Shown here piece by piece: positions 7,510-64,000 of a DNA stretch of 64,000 bases; the stretch's first letter is position 1; each line of letters opens with the position of its first letter. A program made the translations under genes and the position numbers. The DNA is taken from IMG/VR virus record IMGVR_UViG_3300007276_000045, positions 8,735 through 72,734 of that record; one strand, given 5' to 3'. This DNA comes from a virus. The notes below the pieces were generated by a model. It saw only the letters and a program-made list of their open reading frames with translations, ran no database searches and had not been told where the DNA came from.

Positions 7510-7952
7510 TAGGAGCCTCCTCCTTTAATAGCTTTCTTAGAGTTCTTGATCTTGTCTTTAGCACCCGGCCCGTACTTACTCATTAGTCTCTTACTTTTGG
7601 TAGCACCATGTTTAAGTGCTGTCCTATTAGAATGTGCTTTTACACTCTTCCAATCAGAAGATGGAGTAGACGCTCCCGGAGTAAAGCCTTTGGCAATTTT
7701 CCCAGAACTCTTCTTGCCCCAACCAGCTTTAGAAATTACATAAAGCCTATCGGAGCCTTTAGTGCTGAAGACCTGTCCAACTGTTCCTTGTTCTAGAGCC
7801 TTGGCAATAGTAGCAAAGACGCGCACCCGACCTTTAACAGCCTTGGTAGCACCTTTTTTCTTTGCACCGTCTCTACTGGTATACTTCTCTCGGCCCTTGG
7901 ATGATCCTTGGCCCGATTCGGCACGCCCCTCTAGAATATGGAATAAGCTCAT
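7509..7952 (-). CDS. Basic hypothetical protein in head cluster
   Basis: Lys-rich 147 aa ORF coupled to neighbours. Confidence 0.65.
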   Translation of the reverse strand: MSLFHILEGRAESGQGSSKGREKYTSRDGAKKKGATKAVKGRVRVFATIAKALEQGTVGQVFSTKGSDRLYVISKAGWGKKSSGKIAKGFTPGASTPSSDWKSVKAHSNRTALKHGATKSKRLMSKYGPGAKDKIKNSKKAIKGGGS

Positions 7953-8395
7953 GATCTCTTAGCTTTAATACGCTTGAGGATTCGTTTTACGTTGTCCTCT
8001 TCGTCATCCTTCTTAGTGTCTTTACTTTGGGCACCACCCATGTTCACACCCAGACCACCAGCAGCGGTCATCTCGGTAATAGTTTGTTTCATTTCCGAAA
8101 CAAGCTCCTTTAATTCACTGACTAAGGATTTTAGTTCAGCAACTTCCGTCAAGGGTTGAGGGGTTGGTGTTTCGGGGATGGACTCTTGCTGTACTTCAGG
8201 CTGGTTGCCTTCAGTAAGGGAAGCGACGAAATCATTAGGAACCTCGATGTTAGAAACATCTGGTACCTGTTGAGTAATGTCTGGCGAGTAAGAAGATTGC
8301 ACAGGGTTAAGAGTAGGAGGGGTGTTAAACCCCTGCCCACCAGTTTGTTCCTGAGCTAATAGCTTCTCCGCGAAATCTCCAACTGAGAACTCCAC
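7949..8395 (-). CDS. Hypothetical head-associated protein
   Basis: 148 aa ORF in the head operon. Confidence 0.6.
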   Translation of the reverse strand: MEFSVGDFAEKLLAQEQTGGQGFNTPPTLNPVQSSYSPDITQQVPDVSNIEVPNDFVASLTEGNQPEVQQESIPETPTPQPLTEVAELKSLVSELKELVSEMKQTITEMTAAGGLGVNMGGAQSKDTKKDDEEDNVKRILKRIKAKRS

Positions 8396-9027: not shown

Positions 9028-9399
9028 TTACCCATTAGCAAAAACAGTGCTCTGGGTAGGCTCCTGAATGATGTGGTCGTTGACCAAAAAATAAGTATCC
9101 AACTCCCTTGCAACAGGCTGCCCATTAACATAAACGTCAGGTGATCCTGAGTTGCAAGGAGGCTCATGAGGGGTACACAGGGGGTCTGTCGGACTGAGCT
9201 TGTAGTTTTTTGGGTGCGCTAGCATTAAATCTCCCAACCTTACAGCCCCGAACCCCTCTACAAATACATCGGTAGAACATTCGTTGGTAAGAGGTTCTTT
9301 TAATTCCTTGCAGCATGGGCACACGTTCGGCTCAGGTGCTCCGTGCGCTACGCACGCTACCTCATCCCCACTCCCAATCCCTCTTGCAATTAATGGCAT
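9028..9399 (-). CDS. PAAR-like spike tip protein
   Basis: IAR..GD...H, S.DVFVEG.GAVRLGD...H, GSPDVYVNGQPVAR..D and STVFANG motifs. Confidence 0.85.
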   Translation of the reverse strand: MPLIARGIGSGDEVACVAHGAPEPNVCPCCKELKEPLTNECSTDVFVEGFGAVRLGDLMLAHPKNYKLSPTDPLCTPHEPPCNSGSPDVYVNGQPVARELDTYFLVNDHIIQEPTQSTVFANG

Positions 9400-9400
9400 A

Positions 9401-12157
9401 TTATTTATATAGCCTACCTAAGAATTCGGTAGGAAAGTATCTTGCGTTGTTAAGTGCAGTGCTTTGCACTTTATTTGTTAGAGGAGTTCCAGTTAACCTA
9501 TCTGCTGTTAAGAATGTTTTTTCTAAATCCTGTAGTTCCACAGGCTCCACCTTAATGTTATTATAGCTGCCTGCGAATAGGTTAGATATAATAGTTCCGG
9601 GAACAAACTCAAAAAACTCAGCAACCTCTGCGGCAGTCATGTTAAAGAATACATCTGGCTGAAGAATTCGTTTTCCTCTAGCCCCATCTTCAATATTATA
9701 ATTATCGTCGATAGCCTTAACTCTAGAAAAGACTTCAGCTAGTGGAGATTTAATAGTTGTAAAACTTGTTTCTGTTCCATGCAGAGTAGAAGCTTCTCCA
9801 ACCACGGATTCCCTAGCTGCATACTCAAATGCATAGTTATCTTCCTTAAGGGAAGGTGCTTTACCATTCGCAGTCTTTGCTGACTGAACATAGTTTTCTT
9901 GGGCGACAGATTGCAAGGGGTTGTTTACAATACGCATGGTTCTAACTGAGTGTTGTCCCTCGACAAAGGTCTCAAGAGTAGATCTTCCTTGGTAGGGGGA
10001 ATACTTGATTAGATTTGTTGGGTAGATCGCAAAGTCTGTATAAATTTTCCTAGCAAAAACCTTACCATCTAAAGCTCTAGTAAAGTCCGTCATCTTTAGC
10101 TGAACTGTATTCTTCTCCAGCAAGTAGTTCCAAATAGGATCTCGATAATCAATATAGATTGACATCCTCGGTCCTGACCAAGAAGACACCGTTGCATTAA
10201 AGTTTTCGTAGTTATTCCCATTGGTAATGGAGTCCCAAGCTAACTCATAGTCTACAGTGGTATTGGTAAAATCTATGTCACCAGCAGCTTCTGTTCTAAT
10301 AGTTTCTCTAGTGGACGAGAAGAGCATAACGGAAGGGATAGCCGAACCCTCGCCAGAAACCTCGACGCTACCACTACCTCCATAAGTTAGGGAGCTAACG
10401 ACTAACTCTGGTTCGTATGTTCGGATCATCGTCTCCTGTTGAGGTGGGATAACAAAAGCCTTGTCTCTGTTTGAGACGAGACTTACAGTTTCAATGGTAG
10501 AGTCTGCCTTCCTTACTTTAACAAACTCATTTAACTGATAAACAGAGGAGGTATTTGTGCCAGCATCAGTAATACCTCTAACTGTAATCCCGTCATCATC
10601 TCTAACCCGAACACCTGTTAGCTTACCACTTTTTGTTTTTACCGAGACAGTAAGATCAATATCGGTAGGCATAGCACGCCATCTTTGGATCTCACGCTTC
10701 CTATCCCCATTCGAGTATTGACCAGTGAAGATAGACGCTGGTTGGCTATTTCTTACGATTGAGTACTTAAGTCTAGATCCTGTATCGGTAAAGCCCTTGG
10801 GCATTTCAGGAACACCGTAGGGAAAGAAGGTCTTACCCGCTTTAATAATCTCATCTAAAACTTCTTGGTTATAACCACTTACAGTACCTAAAATAGTTGC
10901 TCGCCTAATAGCAGCAGTTAAAAGACCCTTACCGTCTTTTGAAGACACATTAAACTTACTAGCCTCTTCAAGCCGCTCTCTAGCAGAGTCTTTAAGGGAC
11001 TCTGGAATGGCTTGTTGGTTATAAAGAACAGTGGATATACCGATACCACTAAAGGGAGTATTACCTCTAAGTACATCTCCTACCGCAACATTAATTTTAT
11101 CTCTAAGCACTCCTTCGTTAGAGAAGACAGGGTTACCTGCTTCATTACGGGCGTAAGATAAAAGAGTTTGGTTTGTGGAAATCAGTAGGTTATGCTCTGG
11201 GTCAAATACTTCATCCTCTGTTGGGTATAACGGGAAGTTAGATACGTTATCTCCTGTCGCAGTTGCTTGTGGAGGAAGGTTTGCATTAGTATTACCGCTA
11301 TTGATAACCTGTCCAACTATAGGATCTTGAGAGGTAGTAGTATTCCCAAAAGCGGGTGTATTGCTACCTATTGCTACATTTCCCGGAGATACAGGAGTTC
11401 CTCCATTTTCACCACCATCAACTTCTTGCACATCCCCAGCAGATATACCCCCTCCCGGTTCTGTTACATGACAGTAGGTGATACTCCACATCACCTTAGC
11501 AGTTTTGCAGGTCTTATTCCCGCACCCCCCAGAGCCACCACAGGTATGGTTCCCAGATAACACAGTCTTTTGATTTGTAGGCTGAGACGGGTTTCCAAAT
11601 TGATCAGTTGCCCCATCTGGGGCCGCAGGAGGTTGATAAGTATCTTCGGGTCGAGGAGGTCGTTGAGTTCTAAGTTTGCAAGTATACGTCCAAGTAGCTA
11701 CATATCTGCGTATCTTATAGCAAGGTCCACCACCACTAAGAGGCGAGTCGGTAAATGTAATCGTGGGGGTATTACTATCAGGTACACAATAACATGCAGC
11801 ACCACCAGTAGTAGGGCCTTGGCCTCCACCGCCCTGACCACCCATTTGGCTCATCTGCCCTCCTCCCGGAAAAACAGGACCGGGGTGTGGAGGAATAGAA
11901 AAATCCATCTGGCCCATTTGACCCATCTGGCCTCCCATTTGCCCACCTCCATTATGGGAGATTGGGTCCATCATGCCAATGTTCATCTGACCCATCTGAC
12001 CCATCTGACCCATTTGCCCACCGGGAGGTGCAGGTAGACGGTGACATACTCCCCCTACTGCGGGAGGAACTTCATTCATCTGACCACCGCCTTGACCACC
12101 CGGAGGGTCTTGGATCGGTGTATCTTCGCAATCACATTGGCTCAGATCCTGAGGCAT
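9401..12157 (-). CDS. Large virion protein with GQM-repeat and Cys-rich N-terminus
   Basis: 918 aa; repeated GQMGQMGQM; position in the tail/baseplate cluster. Confidence 0.55.
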   Translation of the reverse strand: MPQDLSQCDCEDTPIQDPPGGQGGGQMNEVPPAVGGVCHRLPAPPGGQMGQMGQMGQMNIGMMDPISHNGGGQMGGQMGQMGQMDFSIPPHPGPVFPGGGQMSQMGGQGGGGQGPTTGGAACYCVPDSNTPTITFTDSPLSGGGPCYKIRRYVATWTYTCKLRTQRPPRPEDTYQPPAAPDGATDQFGNPSQPTNQKTVLSGNHTCGGSGGCGNKTCKTAKVMWSITYCHVTEPGGGISAGDVQEVDGGENGGTPVSPGNVAIGSNTPAFGNTTTSQDPIVGQVINSGNTNANLPPQATATGDNVSNFPLYPTEDEVFDPEHNLLISTNQTLLSYARNEAGNPVFSNEGVLRDKINVAVGDVLRGNTPFSGIGISTVLYNQQAIPESLKDSARERLEEASKFNVSSKDGKGLLTAAIRRATILGTVSGYNQEVLDEIIKAGKTFFPYGVPEMPKGFTDTGSRLKYSIVRNSQPASIFTGQYSNGDRKREIQRWRAMPTDIDLTVSVKTKSGKLTGVRVRDDDGITVRGITDAGTNTSSVYQLNEFVKVRKADSTIETVSLVSNRDKAFVIPPQQETMIRTYEPELVVSSLTYGGSGSVEVSGEGSAIPSVMLFSSTRETIRTEAAGDIDFTNTTVDYELAWDSITNGNNYENFNATVSSWSGPRMSIYIDYRDPIWNYLLEKNTVQLKMTDFTRALDGKVFARKIYTDFAIYPTNLIKYSPYQGRSTLETFVEGQHSVRTMRIVNNPLQSVAQENYVQSAKTANGKAPSLKEDNYAFEYAARESVVGEASTLHGTETSFTTIKSPLAEVFSRVKAIDDNYNIEDGARGKRILQPDVFFNMTAAEVAEFFEFVPGTIISNLFAGSYNNIKVEPVELQDLEKTFLTADRLTGTPLTNKVQSTALNNARYFPTEFLGRLYK

Positions 12158-55101: not shown

Positions 55102-55956
55102 ATGACAGACAGTGACAGCAGAACACCCTTACCACCAGCAGACTTCAGCCCTGCTCTCCCAGACTACAATAGCTCAGGTACCGCAAGCGTAAGCGGTACT
55201 GGTTTTTCCGCGTCGAATGCCTTTGGAGGACCATGGTATATTGAGACCCAATCTCTTAATATCGAATACACCAGAGTCCCTACGGTTAGTTTAAATACGA
55301 TGGATGTTAACCTTAGTAGCACCTCGTCAACTTATAGCCATTACGGCTCTAAGATCATCGCCAATGTACATGCACAGGTTATTACAAAGATGGACTTTGG
55401 AACGTATCAAACAAGCTCTTGGGAACAACCACAAAAGTTTGAAATACTTGCTGTAAGCTCTGATGTCTATGGGAATAGTTATGGAGATCTCACTGCGTCT
55501 ACCTTGGGTCCGAGAGGTTCTATTGTTACGACTCAGGAGTACTACCGCCGTATACCTTGGATCGGTTCAGCTTCGGGACAGACAGAAATGACTAAGGTTA
55601 TTAATGCACCCACCTACTACGCGGTTCAAAACTGGACTAACAACTTCTCATCAACGATTGACCCAACGCCTTACCAGTTTGACCTGAAGGCTTGGGCCAT
55701 TGATCCAAAGTGGGATGGAGCACAGTCAATCTACGATCCAGCCCTGTACGCTGGCGGCACCTACCTCTATGGGTTAGGAGGAGAGTATGGAACTGCTTTA
55801 GAATCATTATGGAAGATCACAAATATGATTTCGACCATTGGAACCAGCGTTAGAGATGAAATATTGTATAGCAATCCTGCGACAACGCTTGGTTCGGTGG
55901 TCGTGGCAGATGTTGGAATTCCTGAATACGATCCAACCCGTCACGATTACAGCTAA
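55102..55956 (+). CDS. Hypothetical Ser/Thr-rich protein (possibly virion)
   Basis: AGGAG SD; 284 aa ORF followed by a terminator. Confidence 0.6.
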   Translation: MTDSDSRTPLPPADFSPALPDYNSSGTASVSGTGFSASNAFGGPWYIETQSLNIEYTRVPTVSLNTMDVNLSSTSSTYSHYGSKIIANVHAQVITKMDFGTYQTSSWEQPQKFEILAVSSDVYGNSYGDLTASTLGPRGSIVTTQEYYRRIPWIGSASGQTEMTKVINAPTYYAVQNWTNNFSSTIDPTPYQFDLKAWAIDPKWDGAQSIYDPALYAGGTYLYGLGGEYGTALESLWKITNMISTIGTSVRDEILYSNPATTLGSVVVADVGIPEYDPTRHDYS

Positions 55957-55977: not shown

Positions 55978-56015
55978 AGAGGCTCCTAGTTAATTCTAGG
56001 GGCCTCTTTTTTTTT
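55978..56015 (+). terminator. Intrinsic terminator
   Basis: AGAGGCTCCTAG-TTAATT-CTAGGGGCCTCT hairpin followed by a run of T. Confidence 0.85.
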
Positions 56016-56017
56016 GA

Positions 56018-56137
56018 TAGGAGTCCCTAGTTTTTTTAGGAGTCCCTAGACCATATTCTGAATTAAATTTGGAGTCCCGGATATACTTCTTAGGTACTGT
56101 GTATATGGAGCAGGGGGGAGAGGAACGGAGTCCCTAG
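56018..56137. repeat. Four direct repeats of GGAGTCCC(TAG)
   Basis: TAGGAGTCCCTAG at 56018 and 56037, GGAGTCCCGG at 56071, GGAGTCCCTAG at 56127. Confidence 0.8.
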
Positions 56138-56164
56138 GGCGCGAAATCCTCCGGCGCGAGAGTG

Positions 56165-56189
56165 TAACTCCTTTGTTGACAAGCACTTA
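56165..56189 (+). repeat. 25-bp 9-7-9 palindromic site, copy 1
   Basis: TAACTCCTT-TGTTGAC-AAGCACTTA. Confidence 0.85.
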
Positions 56190-56260
56190 CATCAATGAAA
56201 TAAATAAAAAAACATAGGCACCACGCTTGACATTGGCTGAAATTGTGGTATAATGGTAGC

Positions 56261-56344
56261 ACAAGAGTAATAAGCAACTACCAACAAAACGAAGTTTTGT
56301 TCTCGGACAGGAAAACGGAAGCGTTGCTTATTACTGTTGTTCTA
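56261..56344 (+). ncRNA. Candidate structured small RNA from the first early promoter
   Basis: No ATG after the promoter; perfect 13-bp stem AGTAATAAGCAAC/GTTGCTTATTACT enclosing hairpin AACAAAAC-GAA-GTTTTGTT and a GGA-rich strand. Confidence 0.6.
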
Positions 56345-56379
56345 TTGACATTCACAGAAACACTTGGTATAATATACGC

Positions 56380-56508
56380 ATGAAGACACTAATCCTCCTC
56401 GCTCTCGCTGTCACCTTCAACGATTTCATCGGCTCTCTCATCGCCCTCATCGGCTCTCTGATGGTCAGAATCGGTCACAGCATCACCCTCATTCCTGAAC
56501 TTTTTTAG
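56380..56508 (+). CDS. Leaderless hydrophobic micro-protein (42 aa)
   Basis: MKTLILLALAVTFNDFIGSLIALIGSLMVRIGHSITLIPELF*; ATG 6 nt after TATAAT. Confidence 0.65.
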   Translation: MKTLILLALAVTFNDFIGSLIALIGSLMVRIGHSITLIPELF

Positions 56509-56553
56509 GGACTAGGGCTTGACATTCACCCAAACACCTGTTATAATACACCC

Positions 56554-56673
56554 ATGAAATACATCGTGATTCGTTACCACTCCTCCCCTGTCTCCTTCTC
56601 CAGTCTGCAAGACGCAGAGGACTTCGCCCAAGGTTGTGGCGATTTCCAAGATCTTCTGACAAAGAAGGCTTGA
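56554..56673 (+). CDS. Leaderless micro-protein (39 aa)
   Basis: MKYIVIRYHSSPVSFSSLQDAEDFAQGCGDFQDLLTKKA*; stop TGA lies inside the next TTGACA. Confidence 0.65.
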   Translation: MKYIVIRYHSSPVSFSSLQDAEDFAQGCGDFQDLLTKKA

Positions 56674-56817
56674 CATTCTCACAAACACTTGGTATAATAC
56701 ACCCATGCATTACTAAAGGGCTGTCCTACCCAAGCCACCACTTGGAAGTCCCACTGGACCCGAAAAAAACTCCCCTTACCCCTTGACATTCACCCAAACA
56801 CTTGGTATAATATACAC

Positions 56818-57024
56818 ATGAAAGAAAAAATGACATTTGAAGAATTCACCACTCAACTCGGTTACGCCGATTGGTTCTACATGATGAGTGATGACAGTCG
56901 CTCCTACAATGCTGGTCGTGACCAGATCCAAACCCTTAAGAACTTCGCTATCTCTATGGGTGGAGAATGGCAAGAGGCTTTCGAAGCCAAGTCTAAGGAA
57001 ATGATGTCCCGTCTCCACGGATAA
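56818..57024 (+). CDS. Leaderless hypothetical early protein (68 aa)
   Basis: ATG 6 nt after TATAAT; DW.Y..SDD...Y..G motif. Confidence 0.8.
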   Translation: MKEKMTFEEFTTQLGYADWFYMMSDDSRSYNAGRDQIQTLKNFAISMGGEWQEAFEAKSKEMMSRLHG

Positions 57025-57028
57025 TAAT

Positions 57029-57331
57029 ATGAATTCTCTCCATCTTCATCTCGTCAAAGACGATACGATCATGTCCCATAAGACTGGGGCACTCTGCGGA
57101 ATAGATTACGATGATATCGTGGACGTTCTAGGTGAACCCAACGTCTTCGATGATTTCGGCAAGGTCCGATGGTCTTGGGGCTTTCGTATGATGCCTGATA
57201 ATAAGCCCATGTCTATATGGGACTGGAAAGGGTCAGCGGATTATAACCAGTGGAGCATCTACGGTGCTACTGAGGACTGGGCCAAACTGTTTCCCAATGC
57301 CTTTACCTATCTCAGAGATTTATCAAAATAG
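57029..57331 (+). CDS. Hypothetical early protein (100 aa)
   Basis: Coupled to the previous ORF; Y..IV..LGEP...D..KV...W and IWDWK motifs. Confidence 0.75.
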   Translation: MNSLHLHLVKDDTIMSHKTGALCGIDYDDIVDVLGEPNVFDDFGKVRWSWGFRMMPDNKPMSIWDWKGSADYNQWSIYGATEDWAKLFPNAFTYLRDLSK

Positions 57332-57368
57332 CTCTTGATTTTTTAAAAAAGGGCCGGGTGAAAGCCCC

Positions 57369-57393
57369 TAAGTCCATTGTTGACAAGGGGTTA
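57369..57393 (+). repeat. 25-bp palindromic site, copy 2 (variant)
   Basis: TAAGTCCAT-TGTTGAC-AAGGGGTTA, preceded by TTTTTTAAAAAAGGGCCGGG. Confidence 0.8.
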
Positions 57394-57455
57394 GGACAGA
57401 AAGTTTTTTAGGACAGGGGGTTGACATTTGCCCAAACACCTGTTATAATACACAC

Positions 57456-57683
57456 ATGAAAAATAACACTACTACCTATCAAGTTCAATCAGTTCACAAT
57501 CACGTTCTCTCTACTCGTCCTCTTCGGACTGGAAAAATGGTCTACTTCACAGGGACCAAAGAAGAGTGCGAAGGTTGGAGGACTAACCCTCTCTTCGCTG
57601 ATCAAGTCCGAAAGGCTTTTGAAGGCACTACCTACAAGTCTCGCTCGACTGCGATCCGAGAAGTTTCTCTAGAAACTGCTTGA
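57456..57683 (+). CDS. Leaderless hypothetical protein (75 aa), paralogue of 63095-63295
   Basis: QVQSVH..VLS..PL.TGK.VYFTGT.EEC shared with the later ORF. Confidence 0.8.
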   Translation: MKNNTTTYQVQSVHNHVLSTRPLRTGKMVYFTGTKEECEGWRTNPLFADQVRKAFEGTTYKSRSTAIREVSLETA

Positions 57684-57714
57684 CATTCACTACCTCACTT
57701 GGTATAATACACAC

Positions 57715-57924
57715 ATGAAAAATCCCATTGATTACTTCGACCTTGCCTGTGACCTTGACCGCTGCTTCCCGTGGCACATTAAAGGCGTGCTGATGGCCGT
57801 CTCTACCCATACCAACGTCGAAGGCTACGATGTCTGCCCTCAGCGTATAGCTCTGGACTACCTCAAGGTGTTCTATGCTGATGAGCTTGCTGATGCAGAA
57901 ATGAAAGAAAACGCTCAAGGTTAG
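57715..57924 (+). CDS. Leaderless hypothetical protein (69 aa)
   Basis: ATG 6 nt after TATAAT. Confidence 0.75.
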   Translation: MKNPIDYFDLACDLDRCFPWHIKGVLMAVSTHTNVEGYDVCPQRIALDYLKVFYADELADAEMKENAQG

Positions 57925-57960
57925 TTGACATTTGGTCGATAATATAGTATAATGAAAGAC

Positions 57961-58446
57961 ATGAAAGAAACACTGAAGATCCTCCTCTCCTCGCTCTTGG
58001 GCTATGCTCTCTGGCTTGCTCTCGCCTTCTACGCTCTTAGTGGCGCAGTTAGTGCCCAAACGCACTACGAGCACATCGTAGCTAAGGATGGACTCACTAA
58101 GGCTACGGAATACGTTAATGCAATCCGTGACAACATTCGCCCTGAGCTACACTCTAAGCTAGCTCCCTATGTCTCAGCTATTCGCTACGCTGAGAATGGT
58201 GGCAAGGGTCGTGAATATGGGATTCTCCACCCACGGGTAAAGCCTACTTATCGCTCTCAAGCTGGTTGGTGTGCTGCTACTGTCCAGAAGAACTATGACC
58301 GATGGGTCAAGGCTGGCTCTAAAGGTGAGTTCGTGGTATTCCTCGGAAAGCGTTACTGTCCCGTAGGTGCAGACAATGACCCTAACGGTCTAAACAAGCA
58401 CTGGATTAAAAATGTGAGGAGGCTATATGCGAAACACTCCCGATGA
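57961..58446 (+). CDS. Membrane-anchored/exported lysozyme-fold (glucosaminidase-like) protein
   Basis: N-terminal hydrophobic helix; AIRYAENG (candidate catalytic Glu); RYCPVGADNDPNGLNKHWIKNV C-terminal motif. Start moved to the leaderless ATG at 57961. Confidence 0.6.
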   Translation: MKETLKILLSSLLGYALWLALAFYALSGAVSAQTHYEHIVAKDGLTKATEYVNAIRDNIRPELHSKLAPYVSAIRYAENGGKGREYGILHPRVKPTYRSQAGWCAATVQKNYDRWVKAGSKGEFVVFLGKRYCPVGADNDPNGLNKHWIKNVRRLYAKHSR

Positions 58447-58537
58447 TGGTCTAAATTTCTTTCGTGGCGTTCTATCCGTCACCGCGATCTATTTCCTCTG
58501 TCTTTGGATTGTCTGCATTTTTATGTTGATTTTTTAA
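58427..58537 (+). CDS. Single-TM micro-protein (36 aa)
   Basis: GAGGAGG SD then MRNTPDDGLNFFRGVLSVTAIYFLCLWIVCIFMLIF*. Confidence 0.6.
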   Translation: MRNTPDDGLNFFRGVLSVTAIYFLCLWIVCIFMLIF

Positions 58538-58558
58538 AAAAGGGCCGGGGCGCAGCCC

Positions 58559-58583
58559 TAAGTCCTTTGTTGACAAGCACTTA
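58559..58583 (+). repeat. 25-bp palindromic site, copy 3
   Basis: TAAGTCCTT-TGTTGAC-AAGCACTTA, preceded by GGGCCGGGGCGCAGCCC. Confidence 0.9.
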
Positions 58584-58655
58584 CGACGATTAAAAAAAGA
58601 AAAAAAACAAGGCCCATCCCTTGACAGTGGGGGCATTTCGTGGTATAATACACGC

Positions 58656-58766
58656 ATGAAAAACACCTTTCACGTTCACGCTTGGACCGTCATCTCGGCA
58701 AGCTCCCACATCGAAACCCACCAGTGCATTGATTGCGGCGAAAAACGCACAATTTATGTGGACTAG
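58656..58766 (+). CDS. Leaderless zinc-ribbon-like micro-protein (36 aa)
   Basis: MKNTFHVHAWTVISASSHIETHQCIDCGEKRTIYVD* with HxH and CxxCG. Confidence 0.7.
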   Translation: MKNTFHVHAWTVISASSHIETHQCIDCGEKRTIYVD

Positions 58767-58804
58767 GGCTTGACATTCACCCCTTAACTTGGTATAATAC
58801 ACCC

Positions 58805-59146
58805 ATGAAGACAGAGATTCAAAATACCCCAATCATCACCGTTCCGACCCATCGCAAAGGTCTGAAGCAGGTTTCTTTCCCGCACCACGACTACGTTCTG
58901 TCTATAGGGTATGGCAAAGGTCACTACGCCTCTTGGGTGATTGGTGGTCGTTGGGACGAGGAGGGATCGCAGCACTTCCCTACTACGTTCGAGCTTGCGG
59001 TTCTGGACAAGGACGGTAAATTCTACCCCCTTACATCTTGCGATGATGTTGCTGGTTGGCAACCCATCGACATGATCGAGATCATTGTTGACCGTATGAG
59101 TCGCTACCATTTCGATATCGCAGAATTGAAGTATTTCTGCGACTAA
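58805..59146 (+). CDS. Leaderless hypothetical protein (113 aa)
   Basis: ATG 6 nt after TATAAT; FELAVL and DDV.GW motifs. Confidence 0.75.
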   Translation: MKTEIQNTPIITVPTHRKGLKQVSFPHHDYVLSIGYGKGHYASWVIGGRWDEEGSQHFPTTFELAVLDKDGKFYPLTSCDDVAGWQPIDMIEIIVDRMSRYHFDIAELKYFCD

Positions 59147-59240
59147 CCCCTTGACATTCACTCCTCCATTTGTTATAATGGGGGGAACAAACGAGGCAAG
59201 TAGTCCTCACAACCTGACCCATATCCAAGGAGATATTACT

Positions 59241-59612
59241 ATGACCGATAGAAAGCAACGCACCCCAGCCGAGATCATCGCAGAAACCGAGGCGAAACTT
59301 GAACGCCTCAAGGTAAAGCAAGCAAAGCAGGAAGCCAAGAGCAATCCCGCCGTGGCACCCCTGATGGCAGAGCTTGACGGTCTGCGGAAGGACATTCGAG
59401 AAGCAAAGAAAGGTCTTGGGGACGGTCCCCAGTCTTTCAACGCTCGCGCCGACAAGCACCTAGTGTGGCTTGACAAGATCGAAGCCGAGCGGGAAGCCGC
59501 GCAGGATACTTTGGCGAGTGCGGAGACGCGCAAGTCGGAGATTGAGGCCCTGATCGCTGAGACGATCAACGGCATCGTAGATTCCTCTGACGAAATCACG
59601 TTAGAGGCTTGA
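59241..59612 (+). CDS. Coiled-coil early protein (123 aa), leadered
   Basis: AAGGAG SD; MTDRKQRTPAEIIAETEAKLERLK...; stop lies in the next -35. Confidence 0.8.
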   Translation: MTDRKQRTPAEIIAETEAKLERLKVKQAKQEAKSNPAVAPLMAELDGLRKDIREAKKGLGDGPQSFNARADKHLVWLDKIEAEREAAQDTLASAETRKSEIEALIAETINGIVDSSDEITLEA

Positions 59613-59683
59613 CAAACTGAGGGGATCATGCTATAATGGTTCCCTCAACTAACCCCTTTTCTTATCTATAGGAGATTCTTACT

Positions 59684-59914
59684 ATGCTTTCAAGCATCAC
59701 AAATGTCGTGCGTTCGAACCAGAACGCTGTTATGATCCGAGTTGGTAACGGTTGCGCTTCTAGTGCAGTCTATACCATCTTCGACCTGAAGAGCCAGAGC
59801 AACACCTACACGGGCACGCTCAACTCTTGCAAAAAGGCGTGGAACCGCCATTACATGAACTCTCGGCAGTTCGTGACCCGTGACGGTCTAAACCACCGCT
59901 ACATGAGTAAGTAG
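59684..59914 (+). CDS. Hypothetical early protein (76 aa), leadered
   Basis: TAGGAG SD; own promoter at 59609. Confidence 0.75.
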   Translation: MLSSITNVVRSNQNAVMIRVGNGCASSAVYTIFDLKSQSNTYTGTLNSCKKAWNRHYMNSRQFVTRDGLNHRYMSK

Positions 59915-60127
59915 TTCCCGACTCGACTGGGCGAGTATAAATAGCTTGTAGGCCCAGAGCGTCCCTGAGGGAAGAAGGCGAGCAATTGCTCAGACCTCAC
60001 CCTCAGGGGGATAGAGAAAAAAGAGGAGTCCGATACATTACGATGTGCCTTCTTAGCCCTTCGGGGACATCATCGGTAAGACGATGCACGGCTTGGTCTG
60101 TGGCACGGGACGCTCCTCTTTTTTCTC
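59915..60127 (+). ncRNA. Candidate multi-domain structured RNA
   Basis: Successive stems CTGGGC/GCCCAG; CCCTGAGGG/CCCTCAGGG with inner GAGC-AATT-GCTC; perfect 15-bp GAGAAAAAAGAGGAG/CTCCTCTTTTTTCTC closing a multibranch loop. Confidence 0.55.
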
Positions 60128-60170
60128 ACTTTCTTCTTGCAATTTTGAAAAAATCGCCGGGGCGAAGCCC

Positions 60171-60195
60171 TAAGTCCTTTGTTGACAAGCACTTA
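60171..60195 (+). repeat. 25-bp palindromic site, copy 4
   Basis: TAAGTCCTT-TGTTGAC-AAGCACTTA, preceded by GCCGGGGCGAAGCCC. Confidence 0.9.
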
Positions 60196-60256
60196 CGACC
60201 AAAAGTTTTTTAATGCTAGCCCTTGACATTCTCCGATTGTGTGGTATAATGTATGC

Positions 60257-60379
60257 ATGAACACGTTACCTCCCAATGCTCTCTTCCCCGTTCCCCCTGT
60301 CTGCTCTGCCTACTGGACCAATGCCCAGTGGTATCACTGGTGGGTCAACAGCGGAGGAAAAACCGCAAAAACCTCTTGA
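60257..60379 (+). CDS. Leaderless Pro/Trp-rich micro-protein (40 aa)
   Basis: MNTLPPNALFPVPPVCSAYWTNAQWYHWWVNSGGKTAKTS*; stop lies in the next TTGACA. Confidence 0.6.
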   Translation: MNTLPPNALFPVPPVCSAYWTNAQWYHWWVNSGGKTAKTS

Positions 60380-60410
60380 CATTTCCCCCACCCTTTGGTA
60401 TAATACACGC

Positions 60411-60833
60411 ATGAAAAAGAAAGCCTTCGTATTTGATCTCGACGGAACACTGTTCGAGACTACTGCAAAAGAAATCGAGTCTGCCCACGGTCACGCTCGC
60501 TACATCGAATTTTCAGACACTGAGAAGCTCCTGAAGGAATCAAAGCCTCGCTCCCTTGTCTCGTTCGCTCTTACTGTGCAGAGTGAAGGTCATCGTGTGT
60601 ATGTTCTCACGGCTAGAAACTCCCTCATCTACCGAGCTATCCGCACCCTCTTAGAGCGTTACGGCATCGACGCAGAGTATGTTTTTTGTGTAGGGGATCG
60701 AGGTTTCGACATCCCAGAATACAAGGCAGAGATTCTTTCCAGCCTTGCCGAAACACACGCCACCTATTTCTTCGACGATTGCGAAGAAAATCTTTCTGCC
60801 GTCCCTGACGGAATTCGCGCCTTCAAGGCTTGA
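60411..60833 (+). CDS. HAD-superfamily phosphatase (PNK 3'-phosphatase-like), leaderless
   Basis: FDLDGT (motif I), VLTAR (II), K (III), FFDD (IV); true start 60411. Confidence 0.85.
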   Translation: MKKKAFVFDLDGTLFETTAKEIESAHGHARYIEFSDTEKLLKESKPRSLVSFALTVQSEGHRVYVLTARNSLIYRAIRTLLERYGIDAEYVFCVGDRGFDIPEYKAEILSSLAETHATYFFDDCEENLSAVPDGIRAFKA

Positions 60834-60864
60834 CATCTTCTCCCCTTTGTGGTATAATACACGC

Positions 60865-61170
60865 ATGAAACTCCTCACTGATGAAATCAAATCTTCCCTT
60901 CCCGCTCTCTACTCCACTGAGGGAGACGGTGACAAGAAAATCGTCTGCAAGTTCTTCAACCCTGTAGGGGCTGGCACTTGGTATATTTGCGAAGGTCAAG
61001 AACAAGCCAACGGTGATTGGCTACTGTTCGGCCTTTGTGACCTAGGCTTCGGAATGCCTGAGTGGGGCTATGTCTCACTTAACGAACTGGAGTCTGTCTC
61101 TCTTCCTTTCGGTATGGGCATCGAAAGGGATATCTTTTTCTCGCCCAACACTCTATCTTCTGAGGTTTAA
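60865..61170 (+). CDS. DUF2958-like protein, leaderless
   Basis: LP.LYSTE, KFF.P.G..TWY, FGL.DLG.G.PE.GYVSL.EL and IERD..F motifs. Confidence 0.8.
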   Translation: MKLLTDEIKSSLPALYSTEGDGDKKIVCKFFNPVGAGTWYICEGQEQANGDWLLFGLCDLGFGMPEWGYVSLNELESVSLPFGMGIERDIFFSPNTLSSEV

Positions 61171-61173
61171 TTT

Positions 61174-61362
61174 ATGAATGTTTCCATCAAGGAAAACAAC
61201 GGTGTTTCAACTCTCGTCATCGAGACCCCTGTTTCACTTCGCCCGTCTAAGTCTGGTAAGACTATGCTCGTCGCTTCTAGCGGTGGCAACATCACCACGA
61301 CTGCGATGGTTGACGGTAAGCCCGTCACGGTAGGCTTGAACGCCTACATCCCCAAGGGCTAA
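61174..61362 (+). CDS. Small hypothetical protein (62 aa)
   Basis: PSKSGKT.LVASSGGN...VGLNAY motif; GAGG SD. Confidence 0.75.
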   Translation: MNVSIKENNGVSTLVIETPVSLRPSKSGKTMLVASSGGNITTTAMVDGKPVTVGLNAYIPKG

Positions 61363-61374
61363 CGCCTGAGGGTT

Positions 61375-61444
61375 AGGTGGGGGGCATGGTTGCCTTCGGA
61401 GCCATTAGGCGAGTCCAGCAACCAACCCCCACCTTATTTTTCTC
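61375..61444 (+). terminator. Long hairpin (terminator and/or structured RNA module)
   Basis: AGGTGGGGG/CCCCCACCT plus TGGTTGC/GCAACCA stems, followed by TATTTTT. Confidence 0.6.
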
Positions 61445-61475
61445 ATTTTGTGCTTGACGCGCCGGGGCGAAGCCC

Positions 61476-61500
61476 TAAGTCCTTTGTTGACAAGCACTTA
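61476..61500 (+). repeat. 25-bp palindromic site, copy 5
   Basis: TAAGTCCTT-TGTTGAC-AAGCACTTA, preceded by GCCGGGGCGAAGCCC. Confidence 0.9.
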
Positions 61501-61572
61501 CGTTCACAAGAAATCCAAAAAAAACTAGACCACCCCCTTGACATTTGCCCAACCACTTGGTATAATACACAC

Positions 61573-61643
61573 ATGAAGAAACGAGGAAGCCTCTGCTGCT
61601 TTGATGACCCTAGATAAGGATTCGAAGTTTCCTCTTTTTCTTC
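61573..61643 (+). ncRNA. Stem-closed small RNA cassette (also contains the 14-codon ORF MKKRGSLCCFDDPR)
   Basis: 5' GAAGAAACGAGGAAGC pairs with 3' GTTTCCTCTTTTTCTTC, spanning from the predicted +1 to the next -35. Confidence 0.45.
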
Positions 61644-61678
61644 TTGACATTCACCCAACCACTTGGTATAATACACAC

Positions 61679-61900
61679 ATGAAAAATCCCCAATACTCCC
61701 TTGAAGCCACCTTCAAGCACCAAGGCATCGAGCAGATGCTCTCCAACCTCACTGGCGTATCCCGTAAGGGTGCCGTTGCTGAGGCATCATGCGCCACCTG
61801 CAAAGGTGAGGCTTCCTCTTTCCGTGATGAGGTTTCCGAGAAGGAATACACCATCTCTGGCATGTGCCAGACCTGCCAAGATGATATTTTTGGCAAGTAA
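61679..61900 (+). CDS. Leaderless zinc-finger protein (73 aa)
   Basis: CATC...FRDEVS.KEY.ISGMCQ.CQD.IFG. Confidence 0.8.
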   Translation: MKNPQYSLEATFKHQGIEQMLSNLTGVSRKGAVAEASCATCKGEASSFRDEVSEKEYTISGMCQTCQDDIFGK

Positions 61901-61939
61901 CCCCTTGACATCCACCCTCTAACCTGTTATAATACACAC

Positions 61940-62206
61940 ATGAAAAATCTCCAAGATACTACTGATTTCGAACTCACGGGCGATAACCTCGATGAGTATA
62001 CCGCTCACCAAGAAGCCGAGCTTCTTTCTGACATGAACGATGAGCCTGAGCTTGTCGATGATGATGAACTCAAGTCACTGCTCCAAGAGCTTTGGCAAGA
62101 GGAAGCTGCCCTTGCTATGAAGCGAGAGCAGGAAGAAGAGGAATACACCGAGCGTGATGCGTTCGATGATTTCTACAACGATTACGCCAACGAAATGGAG
62201 GGCTAA
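61940..62206 (+). CDS. Leaderless highly acidic protein (88 aa)
   Basis: About one third Asp/Glu; ATG 6 nt after TATAAT. Confidence 0.8.
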   Translation: MKNLQDTTDFELTGDNLDEYTAHQEAELLSDMNDEPELVDDDELKSLLQELWQEEAALAMKREQEEEEYTERDAFDDFYNDYANEMEG

Positions 62207-62209
62207 ACT

Positions 62210-62509
62210 ATGAGAGTTGATATCCACAGCATCGACCAAATCAAGGTCGATATTCACAAGTCCGATTGGGAAGGAACCAAGAACGGTTGGTTTTCACTGA
62301 AGTTTGATAAGAAGAATTATTGGGAAGAAGAACCCAAGGAAGCGGATTATGAAACCACTTTGTTTTGCGAGGACATCGAAAACGCCTACGCTACGCTGAT
62401 TCAAAACCTTCAACGAGCTATGGAAGTTGCGCGTGTAAAGCACGCCGAGGGACTTGCAAAGCGTAAGGCTGAGGAAGCAGCAGAAAAAGAAAAGGAGGCG
62501 AACGCCTGA
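62210..62509 (+). CDS. Hypothetical protein (99 aa)
   Basis: GGAGG upstream; coupled to the previous ORF. Confidence 0.75.
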   Translation: MRVDIHSIDQIKVDIHKSDWEGTKNGWFSLKFDKKNYWEEEPKEADYETTLFCEDIENAYATLIQNLQRAMEVARVKHAEGLAKRKAEEAAEKEKEANA

Positions 62510-62823
62510 TGGATCACGGAGACTACTTTGCCTCTTACGAACCTACACCGCGCATTGAGGAGTGGGCGATTGTTGGAGACGCTAACCCCTACCAAGCCCC
62601 AGAACTCAGGGAGTTACGGATCACGGGGTTGGTATACGGCCATCCAAGGTTTAATGATGGGCAGGTAGTCACCACTTCGCCCGTTCGTGCCTCTGCTGGT
62701 CATACGGTCGAAACACATAACACAACATACAACCTTGGCAGGATGTCGGAGGAATACAAGAAGTGGTGTTCTTCAATGGGGATTGAGGTGGATGCCTCCG
62801 CTCCTGTCAAGGTCTTTTCTTAA
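62509..62823 (+). CDS. Hypothetical protein with G.VYGHPRF.DG motif (104 aa)
   Basis: AAGGAGG SD; I.G.VYGHPRF.DG..V.TS.V and T.NT.Y.LG motifs. Confidence 0.75.
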   Translation: MDHGDYFASYEPTPRIEEWAIVGDANPYQAPELRELRITGLVYGHPRFNDGQVVTTSPVRASAGHTVETHNTTYNLGRMSEEYKKWCSSMGIEVDASAPVKVFS

Positions 62824-62837
62824 AAGTTTCGCGGTCC

Positions 62838-62862
62838 TAAGTTGTTGTCAACGCAGCACTTA
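62838..62862 (-). repeat. 25-bp palindromic site, copy 6 (inverted orientation)
   Basis: Reverse complement reads TAAGTGCTG-CGTTGAC-AACAACTTA. Confidence 0.75.
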
Positions 62863-62888
62863 GGTTCGCGGGGCCGGGGCCGAGGCCC

Positions 62889-62913
62889 TAAGTCCTTTGT
62901 TGACAAGCACTTA
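62889..62913 (+). repeat. 25-bp palindromic site, copy 7
   Basis: TAAGTCCTT-TGTTGAC-AAGCACTTA, preceded by GGGCCGGGGCCGAGGCCC. Confidence 0.9.
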
Positions 62914-62986
62914 CGCACGCTGAAAAAAATTAAAAAACCGAGGCCCTACCCTTGACAAACCCCACCAGACTTGGTATAATACACAC

Positions 62987-63057
62987 ATGGAAACGAGCGA
63001 CTCCAACACAAGACCGCTCGTAGGGTTTCGAGTCCCTGTCAGAAAAACTCGTTTTCC
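62987..63057 (+). ncRNA. Stem-closed small RNA cassette / structured in-frame leader
   Basis: GGAAACGAG/CTCGTTTTCC closing stem; internal AGGG-TTTCGAGT-CCCT hairpin; alternative ACGAGCG/CGCTCGT pairing. Confidence 0.4.
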
Positions 63058-63094
63058 CCTTGACAAAACCTCTCCCCTTTGGTATAATACACGC

Positions 63095-63295
63095 ATGAAA
63101 AACACCTCTCCTACCTTTCAAGTTCAGTCGGTCCATGACCGCGTTCTCTCTCTCAACCCTCTTGTAACTGGCAAGACGGTCTACTTCACTGGCACCCTTG
63201 AAGAGTGCAAAGCGCACAAGATCGATTGGGTTGGTGAGTATCGGAACACCATCTACAAAGCTCGATCTACTATGATCCGAGAAGTTTCCCAATAA
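63095..63295 (+). CDS. Leaderless hypothetical protein (66 aa), paralogue of 57456-57683
   Basis: MKNTSPTFQVQSVHDRVLSLNPLVTGKTVYFTGTLEEC...; own promoter at 63060. Confidence 0.8.
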   Translation: MKNTSPTFQVQSVHDRVLSLNPLVTGKTVYFTGTLEECKAHKIDWVGEYRNTIYKARSTMIREVSQ

Positions 63296-63336
63296 ACCCC
63301 TTGACAATCACCCCCTACTCTGGTATAATAGAACAC

Positions 63337-63480
63337 ATGGACGAATACGAATACGACGAAGGCTCCGACATCGACAACTGGGAAGACGAGCAAGTTTTCC
63401 AAGATCGCGAAGGTGACGAGGACGATGAGAGCCTCAACTACTGGGACGATTTCGACGCTGATTGGAGGCACGAATCTTGA
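63337..63480 (+). CDS. Leaderless extremely acidic micro-protein (47 aa)
   Basis: MDEYEYDEGSDIDNWEDEQVFQDREGDEDDESLNYWDDFDADWRHES*; 22 Asp/Glu versus 2 Arg. Confidence 0.75.
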   Translation: MDEYEYDEGSDIDNWEDEQVFQDREGDEDDESLNYWDDFDADWRHES

Positions 63481-63590
63481 ATTTTTGGAAAGCATTGCTT
63501 GACCATCTGACCCCTTCATGGTATAATGATACACCCGAACGAGAGACGGGTTCTGATTCTCTCAACAACCCTTTGCAAAAGGATACTACT

Positions 63591-63821
63591 ATGCAGAATG
63601 ATTTTTCATTCAACCCTACTCAGGCCAAAGTTCAAGGTCTGAGTGTTCAAGTTGGCGAGCTTTTCGCGAAGCTCTACTCTGACGGTTCCGCTTCGGCAAC
63701 CGATGTCGATAACGCGCTGGAGGCTTACAAGTCTCTGCGCCGATTGCTCCCTCGGGAGTTTGGCATGGGTCGCCATGTGGGAGCGCAAGCTGCTCACAAG
63801 GCAACTCAAGGGCAGAGCTAA
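63591..63821 (+). CDS. Hypothetical early protein (76 aa), leadered
   Basis: AAAGGA SD; MQNDFSFNPTQAKVQG...; promoter at 63499. Confidence 0.7.
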   Translation: MQNDFSFNPTQAKVQGLSVQVGELFAKLYSDGSASATDVDNALEAYKSLRRLLPREFGMGRHVGAQAAHKATQGQS

Positions 63822-63990
63822 CGCTCGCAGTGGGGCCTCGACGGAGTGTCCCCACTATAAAGAAAGCGTGTAGCCTACGGGAAAAGGCAGGGGGGAGTTC
63901 CTATAGGGCGTGACGTATTCGCGCACGGGACTCCTCCCGCCCTTTTGGGGGTGTTTAGGTTGTTCGACTAGTAAGACCCTACACGGGAAC
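63822..63990 (+). ncRNA. Candidate structured RNA (may continue past the window)
   Basis: AGTGGGG/CCCCACT hairpin, then AAAAGG..GGGGGGAGTTCC / GGGACTCCTCCC..CCTTTT long stem. Confidence 0.45.
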
Positions 63991-64000
63991 TATTAGGACG

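Follow-up and report, generated by a model that had tools for sequence, protein, structure and literature searches.

An early modular region of an uncultured aquatic phage probably carries several unrelated structured RNA elements in two positional classes

Why would an array of phage genes, each behind a promoter of its own, contain short stretches that fold into stems where a protein would be expected? The question arises in a 64,000-nt piece of viral DNA (hereafter the window), which comprises bases 8735-72734 of the 72,734-base virus record IMGVR_UViG_3300007276_000045 and ends where the contig ends; CheckV estimates the record to be 65% complete. Seven intervals between 56261 and 63946 had been described in an earlier note, made from the sequence, as one family of stem-closed small RNA cassettes interleaved with protein cassettes, and all seven were located in the DNA at the positions listed here. 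We conclude, with a probability of roughly 0.7, that they are unrelated RNA elements of two positional classes in the early modular part of the genome of an uncultured aquatic phage; just as probably, the set consists of several unrelated structured RNA elements plus one ordinary terminator and one leader hairpin.

56261-56344, plus strand: cassette A, an 84-nt long hairpin, promoter 56227-56254 (minimum free energy, MFE, -26 kcal/mol; folding z-score -4.71)
56705-56761, plus strand: cassette B, promoter 56670-56698, conserved core 56718-56759 (variants; z +0.36)
60014-60127, plus strand: X RNA, core 60023-60119 (covariation; z -3.40)
61375-61434, plus strand: best read as the terminator of the 62-aa gene at 61174-61362 (z -3.93; position)
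61573-61643, plus strand: cassette C, promoter 61538-61566 (z -2.06; covariation)
62987-63057, plus strand: cassette D, promoter 62952-62980, hairpin 1 at 62993-63021 and hairpin 2 at 63022-63037 (z -0.50)
63882-63946, plus strand: leader hairpin L, best read as part of the precursor of a mini-transfer-messenger RNA (mini-tmRNA), whose first base it abuts (z -4.93)

Minus-strand structural and replication genes, including those for portal, large terminase and helicase, fill most of the window. Among 50,697 phage records none exceeds 35.5% identity to the large terminase, and a blastn search of 56001-64000 against these records gave zero matches, so the phage was placed in an uncultured group. 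The DNA sequencing runs that contain the region are labelled freshwater, aquatic or marine metagenome. Related arrays, referred to below by L numbers, were located by a promoter-pattern scan of viral contigs, and when the 76-aa gene at 59684-59914 was used in a protein scan, metagenome contigs yielded 324 relatives (80 of them retained) and viral contigs 24. Protein cassettes are reshuffled among these related phages.

The intervals lie in an array of promoters. Between 55900 and 64000 there are 29 promoter-like sites, against 8.1 +/- 2.4 in shuffled sequence, and on the plus strand 21 sites match TTGACA-N16/17-TATAAT at 12 of 12 positions and one at 11 of 12, which makes 22 consensus promoters. 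At 15 sites in the window an ATG stands exactly 6 nt past the -10 box (0 expected), and many of the open reading frames (ORFs) take as their stop codon the TGA within the next TTGACA, as can be read from ORF ends and -35 starts at 56673/56670, 57683/57680 and 60833/60830. The promoters of the array (56227-63527) that have an ATG 6 nt after the -10 thus serve predicted leaderless mini-genes, one consensus promoter each. The array was not found in the stretch of the record that precedes the window, and it extends beyond the window end in the near-identical contig L100. A repeat search found six copies of a 57-nt element, spaced 1.2-1.6 kb apart, that split the region into modules.

56137-56193, 57341-57397, 58531-58587, 60143-60199, 61448-61504 and 62861-62917, plus strand: module-boundary element (repeat family D5)

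This boundary element consists of a G+C hairpin, with a stem that is not the same in all copies and relatives, then the inverted repeat CTAAGT-N16-ACTTAC and an A-run about 13 nt ahead of the first -35; it resembles a protein-binding site. The intervals at 56261, 56705, 61573 and 62987 each start at a promoter +1 and end at the next -35, with perfect TTGACA-N16/17-TATAAT promoters, exactly as first described. Short, conserved, structured non-protein cassettes do occupy protein-cassette slots in this phage group.

The idea of a single family did not survive. Searches with blastn and nhmmer resolved the seven intervals into seven separate groups with zero cross-matches. The purine-rich 5' and pyrimidine-rich 3' arms are expected anyway, for each 3' arm also serves as a U-run or belongs to the pyrimidine-rich sequence found ahead of most -35 boxes. 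When the intervals were compared with dinucleotide shuffles, five of the seven folded better than the shuffles and two, 56705 and 62987, did not. Pairing of the 5' and 3' ends, proposed for all, likewise fails for these two, whose ends are left unclosed in the MFE structure (the 5' end of 56705 is unpaired and the closing stem of 62987 is missing). The view that none holds a credible protein calls for the reservation that three of the four promoter-driven intervals (B, C and D) open with a leaderless ATG exactly 6 nt past the -10, as in protein cassettes; the frames from these ATGs are a 3-codon ORF, a 14-codon ORF and, at 62987, a 102-aa frame running into the next gene. The search for homologues and covariation supported four of the seven intervals (the X RNA, 61573, hairpin 1 of 62987 and the hairpin of 56705) and not the closing stem of 62987.

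No described family had been recognised among the intervals, and Rfam indeed matches none of the seven. At the gathering score the only match in the window is the Pistol ribozyme discussed below, and with E values up to 10 the intervals were touched only by generic microRNA-model hairpins and by a minus-strand RT-3 match (21.3 vs 40.5 bits); 61360-63070 was covered solely as part of an 8.1-kb scan, and permissive searches of 60005-60135 and 56250-56790 returned generic hairpin matches only. At least four conserved RNA motifs (X, B, C and D) thus match no Rfam family. Each of the seven elements is present once per module, and a repeat search for a ToxI-like type III antitoxin RNA showed no tandem array of any of the seven intervals. 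When each RNA was scanned for antisense matches to the full 72.7-kb contig, the longest were 9-13 nt, which is chance level.

The X RNA is the best supported of the seven intervals. Its helix P1 joins the 5' and 3' ends, P2 is pseudoknotted with P5, P3 is a variable hairpin, and P4 completes the fold, with a U-run after the RNA. Nine and later thirteen distinct variants were collected from related phage contigs. In the alignment of 13 sequences 96.1% of cells are paired and 11 of the 22 pairs have changed on both sides; slid-partner controls were only 37-52% paired, and none of 500 shuffles was as good, although such counts are not probabilities because the structure came from the same, mutually related sequences. 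P5, which also covaries, encloses the 3' strand of P2, and the RNA is thus pseudoknotted. P3 ranges in length from 4 to more than 40 nt, and no variant departs from the others in the GUAAGA loop of P4 or at several of the junction bases. Judged by these patterns of substitution, X is predicted to be a new pseudoknotted, stem-closed RNA. Homology to L027 and L025 breaks at 60018 and restarts at 60121, those phages having an insert of about 300 nt there. Of the 13 copies, 3 lie behind a Pistol ribozyme, 6 behind the 3' end of a tRNA-like or tmRNA-like RNA, 2 behind a different structured RNA and 1 behind an ORF (L220 was left out); the tmRNA-like RNA upstream of X in other phages is 80 nt long. 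Wherever the flanks were read, a U-run and a boundary element lie 3' of X. The interval also has the form of a terminator, with P1 followed by TTTTTT at a module end, and an interior that is atypically large for one. Pattern searches gave 77 matches in viral contigs, three of them real (L220 and L244 informative, L236 a duplicate), and in bacterial genomes none of the at least 120 matches listed was confirmed by nhmmer. A role for X as the coding piece of a two-piece tmRNA was considered and dropped by eye, there being no conserved frame and indels that are not multiples of three.

Immediately upstream of X lies an element of a known family.

59921-60013, plus strand: Pistol self-cleaving ribozyme, RF02679 (Rfam match 59921-59975; long P3 to about 60013; from Rfam and folding)

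The match reaches 49.4 bits where the gathering score is 34.5 (E 5.4e-06 for the window as a whole), the linker AUAAAUA and its matching strands are present in the model alignment, and the pseudoknot pairing CUGGGC/GCCCAG is seen in folds. A long interrupted P3 folds in the window and in L025, where the arms differ yet stay complementary, and it closes near 60011. Since in relatives the bases past the long P3 complement the 5' strand of P2, the ribozyme end and cleavage site were placed at about 60010-60013, just ahead of the first base of X at 60014; we infer the 3' boundary and cleavage position near 60010. The gene in front of the ribozyme encodes the 76-aa protein (59684-59914), which has no Pfam or PHROG match and belongs with 192 homologous clusters, every one of them unnamed; an Atlas query likewise yielded no lead, and its AlphaFold2 model (pLDDT 76.5) gave no Foldseek match in PDB at E <= 0.001. 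A Pistol also lies 3' of the homologous gene in six related contigs (L100, L101, L184, L180, L025 and L181), and of the 77 distinct downstream stretches examined most show Pistol-like sequence after the gene. The RNA that follows it is not fixed: in the L100-L202 relatives it is X RNA, the mini-tmRNA, an RNA of about 250 nt containing GGGTCGCATAATAAG, or others.

The available part of Harris et al. (2015; PMC4604425) associates Pistols with bacteriophage-related genes and environmental DNA. As at the loci described there, a bona fide Pistol here adjoins phage genes, and unlike them it sits between a conserved 76-aa gene and an interchangeable structured RNA. In the available part of a report on theta (HDV-like) ribozymes (PMC10879173), these ribozymes lie beside tRNAs in gut phages. 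The two cases are alike in that a small self-cleaving ribozyme adjoins a structured RNA in a phage, presumably setting an RNA end; they differ in that the ribozyme here is of the Pistol class and its neighbour is not a tRNA but an RNA outside known families. No HDV-type Rfam match was present in the region. Pistol-released cargo RNAs were not described in the literature searched, and may be mentioned in the Pistol discovery paper or its supplements. A 140-aa HAD-type protein, whose best PHROG match is a polynucleotide kinase family (the phosphatase-like part), is encoded at 60411-60833. Pistol-type cleavage leaves cyclic-phosphate and 5'-OH ends, and the presence of a putative RNA-end-healing enzyme beside the ribozyme may be more than coincidence.

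Among the promoter-driven cassettes, C combines a helix that closes its ends with a small inner hairpin and a conserved GCCUCUGCUGCU stretch. In its 6 distinct variants, pairing in the closing helix reaches 98% and 2 of the helix pairs are compensated, with 1 more compensated pair in the inner hairpin; this covariation was equalled by 5 of 500 shuffles. L110b has no ATG and L123 has it at another position, and where relatives read CGA or CAA the window copy has an in-frame TAA. Between the window and L110a there are 11 changes, spread 3/5/3 over codon positions 1/2/3, and four of them build two compensated pairs. Unbiased codon positions, compensated pairs and loss of the ATG together argue that RNA structure, not a peptide, is the shared constraint in C. 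A pattern scan for C gave 17 matches, none convincing besides the already known L012. The 5' arm of C (61583-61593) is complementary over 11 nt to 61808-61818 in the next gene, which is within chance expectation.

Cassette D is represented by 4 distinct variants. Its hairpin 1 has 2 compensated pairs, both in L418, which is also without the ATG, and its hairpin 2 is T-arm-like and invariant, with an A-run after it. The stem proposed to close the 5' and 3' ends of D has to be given up: 75% of cells are paired, 0 pairs are compensated and 500 of 500 shuffles are equal or better. D was also considered as a tRNA and dropped, as there is no acceptor pairing after hairpin 2 and the hairpin-2 loop has 8 nt; in the window ARAGORN reported 0 tRNA genes and there was no RF00005 match.

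Cassette B begins with a 3-codon mini-ORF, followed by a core in which a variable central hairpin stands between invariant GUCC and GGAC. The core is known as 4 distinct variants over 11 loci, and the central hairpin forms in 4 of 4 variants via three different stems. The mini-ORFs are unlike between variants (MHY, MK, MIN and MTHARDGP), and the copy in L116 sits behind an ORF, not a promoter. One further B-pattern locus (L280) was rejected as a chance match within a coding region, and a reading of B as an HDV-like ribozyme was dropped by eye, since its P1 would have just 3 bp.

Cassette A was found solely in the window and as an identical copy in L100. The close relative L101 keeps this promoter slot and the first 12 transcribed bases, but an unrelated stem-closed cassette of type E comes after them, so that A in the window and L100 and E in L101 represent a cassette swap between near-identical phages. 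Relatives hold further stem-closed cassettes of types E and H, in which the closing arms have changed and remain complementary. Three GGA triplets lie inside cassette A within 56306-56323 (18 nt), where no non-identical homologue is available for comparison, and they recall CsrA/RsmA-binding sponge RNAs. CsrB/RsmZ and RNA anti-CRISPRs are small, highly expressed structured RNAs that act by protein titration. By description only, the GGA triplets liken cassette A to CsrB/RsmZ, and unlike in those RNAs GGA is not conserved across the families here; unlike in RNA anti-CRISPRs, no CRISPR-repeat-like conserved hairpin was seen, and the sequence of the B hairpin varies freely.

The two remaining intervals have plainer readings. 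The interval 61375-61434 has an 8-9-bp G/C closing stem followed by TTATTTTT, immediately ahead of a boundary element; each of its 4 distinct variants lies right after the homologous 62-aa gene and ahead of the boundary element, and in L027 homology ends with the end of this gene. Given the fixed place after the 62-aa gene, the U-run and the boundary element, it is best read as an extended intrinsic terminator of this upstream gene, at the module end. A simple terminator scanner missed both 61375 and 60014, whose loops are above its limit. The leader hairpin at 63882-63946 is known in 3 near-identical variants, all of whose changes preserve pairs (G-U to A-U and the reverse). In L100 its homologue ends at 7895 and the Rfam tmRNA match begins at 7896, and a leader hairpin of a mini-tmRNA precursor is the best reading of the interval.

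63947-64000, plus strand: 5' part (54 nt) of the mini-tmRNA, the rest being cut off by the end of the window and contig; full in L100 at 7896-7976

RF00023 matches of 80-81 nt, scoring 55-64 bits against a gathering score of 47, were found in L100, L101, L180, L149, L150 and L161, and cover model positions 1-374 within 80 nt. The mini-tmRNA of L100 (7896-7976) contains GGGGGUG...CACCUCCACCA and GGGUUCGAUUCCC, with an acceptor stem that has a G-U third pair, a T-arm and a CCA end. The 80-81-nt element has the tRNA-like domain only and no tag-coding part, and ARAGORN reported no tmRNA. It recurs in many relatives, often immediately 5' of the X RNA. At 63830-63880 a hairpin and then UAUAAAGAAAGCGUG precede the leader hairpin, and the same words precede the mini-tmRNA in L112; the UAUAAAGAAAGCGUG region is faintly like the Pistol linker and had no Rfam match. 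In L100 a stem-closed RNA with a U-run lies at 7985-8105, between the mini-tmRNA and the next boundary element, with a diverged copy in L101, and a tRNA-Asp gene lies at 9355-9431, about 1.4 kb past the window end. The available part of the report on the OM43 phage Melnitz (PMC9004378) describes a two-piece ssrA. The present case resembles it in being an aquatic phage with a tmRNA-related gene behind an early promoter, and differs in that the RNA here is about 80 nt, with acceptor stem and T-arm and no tag-coding part. An 80-nt tag-less tmRNA-like phage RNA was not described in the literature searched. Phage T4 encodes small stable RNAs of unknown function together with tRNA genes; by description only, X is like these in adjoining a tRNA-type gene (the mini-tmRNA), with which it is probably co-processed, and unlike them in that a ribozyme can stand in for tRNA-type processing here.

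Other features of the region can be mentioned briefly. The 284-aa gene at 55102-55956 had no relatives in viral contigs, a DUF2958 protein is encoded at 60865-61170, and the paralogous protein cassettes 57441-57709 and 63080-63330, in separate modules, share about 76% DNA identity. Three leadered mRNA starts have in common an ACGAG-containing 5' hairpin, then A(C/A)(A/T)AACC and, last, a Shine-Dalgarno sequence; the homologous leader of L011 and L012 is instead read as an N-terminal extension from a leaderless ATG.

59180-59240: ACGAG-hairpin leader
63528-63590: ACGAG-hairpin leader
L001, about 370-310, minus strand: ACGAG-hairpin leader

We propose that each module would run from a boundary element through a string of sigma-70-type promoters, each with a leaderless mini-gene, to a stem followed by a U-run. 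The first class would consist of the promoter-driven elements (56261, 56705, 61573 and 62987), each replacing a leaderless gene and usually first in its module, and what is conserved in them would be RNA secondary structure and not a peptide. The second class would comprise the module-end RNAs 3' of leadered genes, namely the X RNA, the 61375 terminator and the 63882 leader hairpin. The 5' end of X would most likely be cut by Pistol, the preceding tRNA-like RNA being processed instead in other phages, and the P1 stem with its U-run would end the transcript. From the conservation, covariation and position observed above, we infer what their expression, processing, stability and targets might be: it is an even bet that those elements that are real build up early in infection as discrete small RNAs and work in trans on host factors. 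This proposal follows from the paired ends, from the 5' processing site and 3' terminator of X, from the varied contexts in which X, B and D occur, and from cassette swapping. Paired ends, and for X also a ribozyme-made 5'-OH, would shield such RNAs from end-dependent RNases.

A number of points weigh against this reading. None of the 21 listed sequencing runs that hold the region is an RNA run. The relatives do not count as independent, and each structure was tested on the very sequences that it came from. Cassettes C and D are known from 6 and 4 variants, and the covariation of D hairpin 1, with n = 4 sequences, was reached by 34 of 500 shuffles. In L115, L110, L110a and L123 the two cassettes hold 19-25-codon ORFs that end at the TGA of the next -35 and so resemble genuine protein cassettes, which makes a peptide role possible. 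Cassette B folds no better than its shuffles and varies in the central hairpin only; its flanking GUCC/GGAC and GGG/CCC pairings are uninformative because they never vary. The support for cassette A is thermodynamic, as it has no homologue beyond an identical copy. Finally, A-D lead straight into the next TTGACA without a run of at least 5 U after the closing stem. The promoter-driven cassettes thus have no terminator, so that their 3' ends are undefined and they may be just 5' leaders.

This last point introduces the main rival, in which A-D are cis-acting operon leaders that work by put-like antitermination, Rho protection or a 5' stabilising structure. The HK022 put antiterminator RNAs and 5' stabilising stem-loops are short, lie right after an early promoter and act on polymerase or transcript; by description only, the cassettes here are like put in being short, structured and directly behind a promoter, and unlike it in being diverse, with unrelated ones swapping in one slot. 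Among about 1080 promoter-defined cassettes on 132 locus-strands we counted 23 distinct short non-coding ones, four of them in the window. A short non-coding cassette was the first after a boundary element in 13 of 24 cases, against 42 of 605 for the others (odds ratio 15.8; related sequences are counted here, as in the end-pairing test below, and the boundary regular expression is imperfect). This enrichment at module starts fits a role in cis at least as well as one in trans and so also speaks against our reading, and without a terminator of their own the cassettes must let transcription run into the next cassette. In addition, the leadered mRNAs from 59180 and 63528 begin with a similar ACGAG-containing 5' hairpin. 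On the other side, B stands in the middle of a module in the window and follows an ORF in L116. A promoter of its own serves the downstream gene, which as an internal cistron lacks a Shine-Dalgarno sequence, and near-identical phages hold unrelated cassettes in the same slot. Taken together, we regard operon leaders as possible, with odds well short of even.

The original proposal, one family of nuclease-resistant stem-closed scaffolds that present different loops as decoys, sponges or antisense RNAs, now appears improbable. It is true that at least 5 pairs between the first and last 20 nt were found in 15 of the 23 short non-coding cassettes and in only 2 of 24 small protein cassettes (Mann-Whitney p 2e-4, with mononucleotide shuffles and relatives that are not independent), that the closing helix of C covaries and relatives have the stem-closed types E and H, that unrelated cassettes exchange within one slot, and that cassette A carries three interior GGA triplets. 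The seven intervals nevertheless share no homology in sequence or structure, and three of them have a simpler positional reading, as terminator, leader hairpin and ribozyme-released RNA. The closing stems of 56705 and 62987 fail, no complementary target above chance was found in the phage genome, and the asymmetry of the stems is expected anyway.

Less probable still is that B-D are tiny or decayed leaderless protein cassettes whose folds are incidental. The position of their ATG, the 19-25-codon ORFs in four relatives and the TAA of the window copy of C against CGA or CAA elsewhere would suit such an origin, but L110b and L418 have no ATG and that of L123 is shifted, the mini-ORFs of B are wholly unlike, the substitutions have no third-position bias and some make compensated pairs, and the ends are paired far more often than in small protein cassettes. 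That all seven are terminators or chance hairpins is scarcely tenable and was already disfavoured: 61375 and 60014 do end in U-runs at module ends and two intervals fail to beat their shuffles, but A-D lie between promoters without U-runs and covariation is seen in B, C and D, and X has an interior of about 85 nt with several helices, invariant loop bases, a pseudoknot and a variable arm, over 13 variants.

We therefore retain the reading of unrelated elements in two positional classes. Small RNAs encoded by phages and ribozymes associated with them are already known; RNA cassettes in leaderless promoter arrays were not described in the literature searched. The new motifs sit in a widespread uncultured phage group, the neighbouring gene having 324 metagenomic relatives, and within an unusual expression design in which each leaderless mini-gene has one consensus promoter. 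As a tentative extension that we hold to be rather unlikely, the region may be an RNA-based toolkit for host takeover or counter-defence, in which the 76-aa gene and Pistol form a unit that frees interchangeable cargo RNAs (the X RNA, the tag-less mini-tmRNA and the RNA of about 250 nt), and the promoter-driven RNA cassettes would be exchanged among near-identical genomes like anti-defence genes. If so, X would be a new functional class, a protein- or ribosome-binding RNA or a further ribozyme, as its pseudoknot, its invariant loop bases and its frequent place beside the mini-tmRNA may indicate. A tmRNA-like RNA without a tag lies beside these elements, a hint that translation or ribosome rescue may be interfered with. 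We know of no established biological role for Pistol ribozymes, and this locus offers a concrete candidate, the freeing of a structured RNA from the 3' end of an early mRNA; were the toolkit real, the making of 5'-OH ends of small RNAs would be the first biological role for Pistol.

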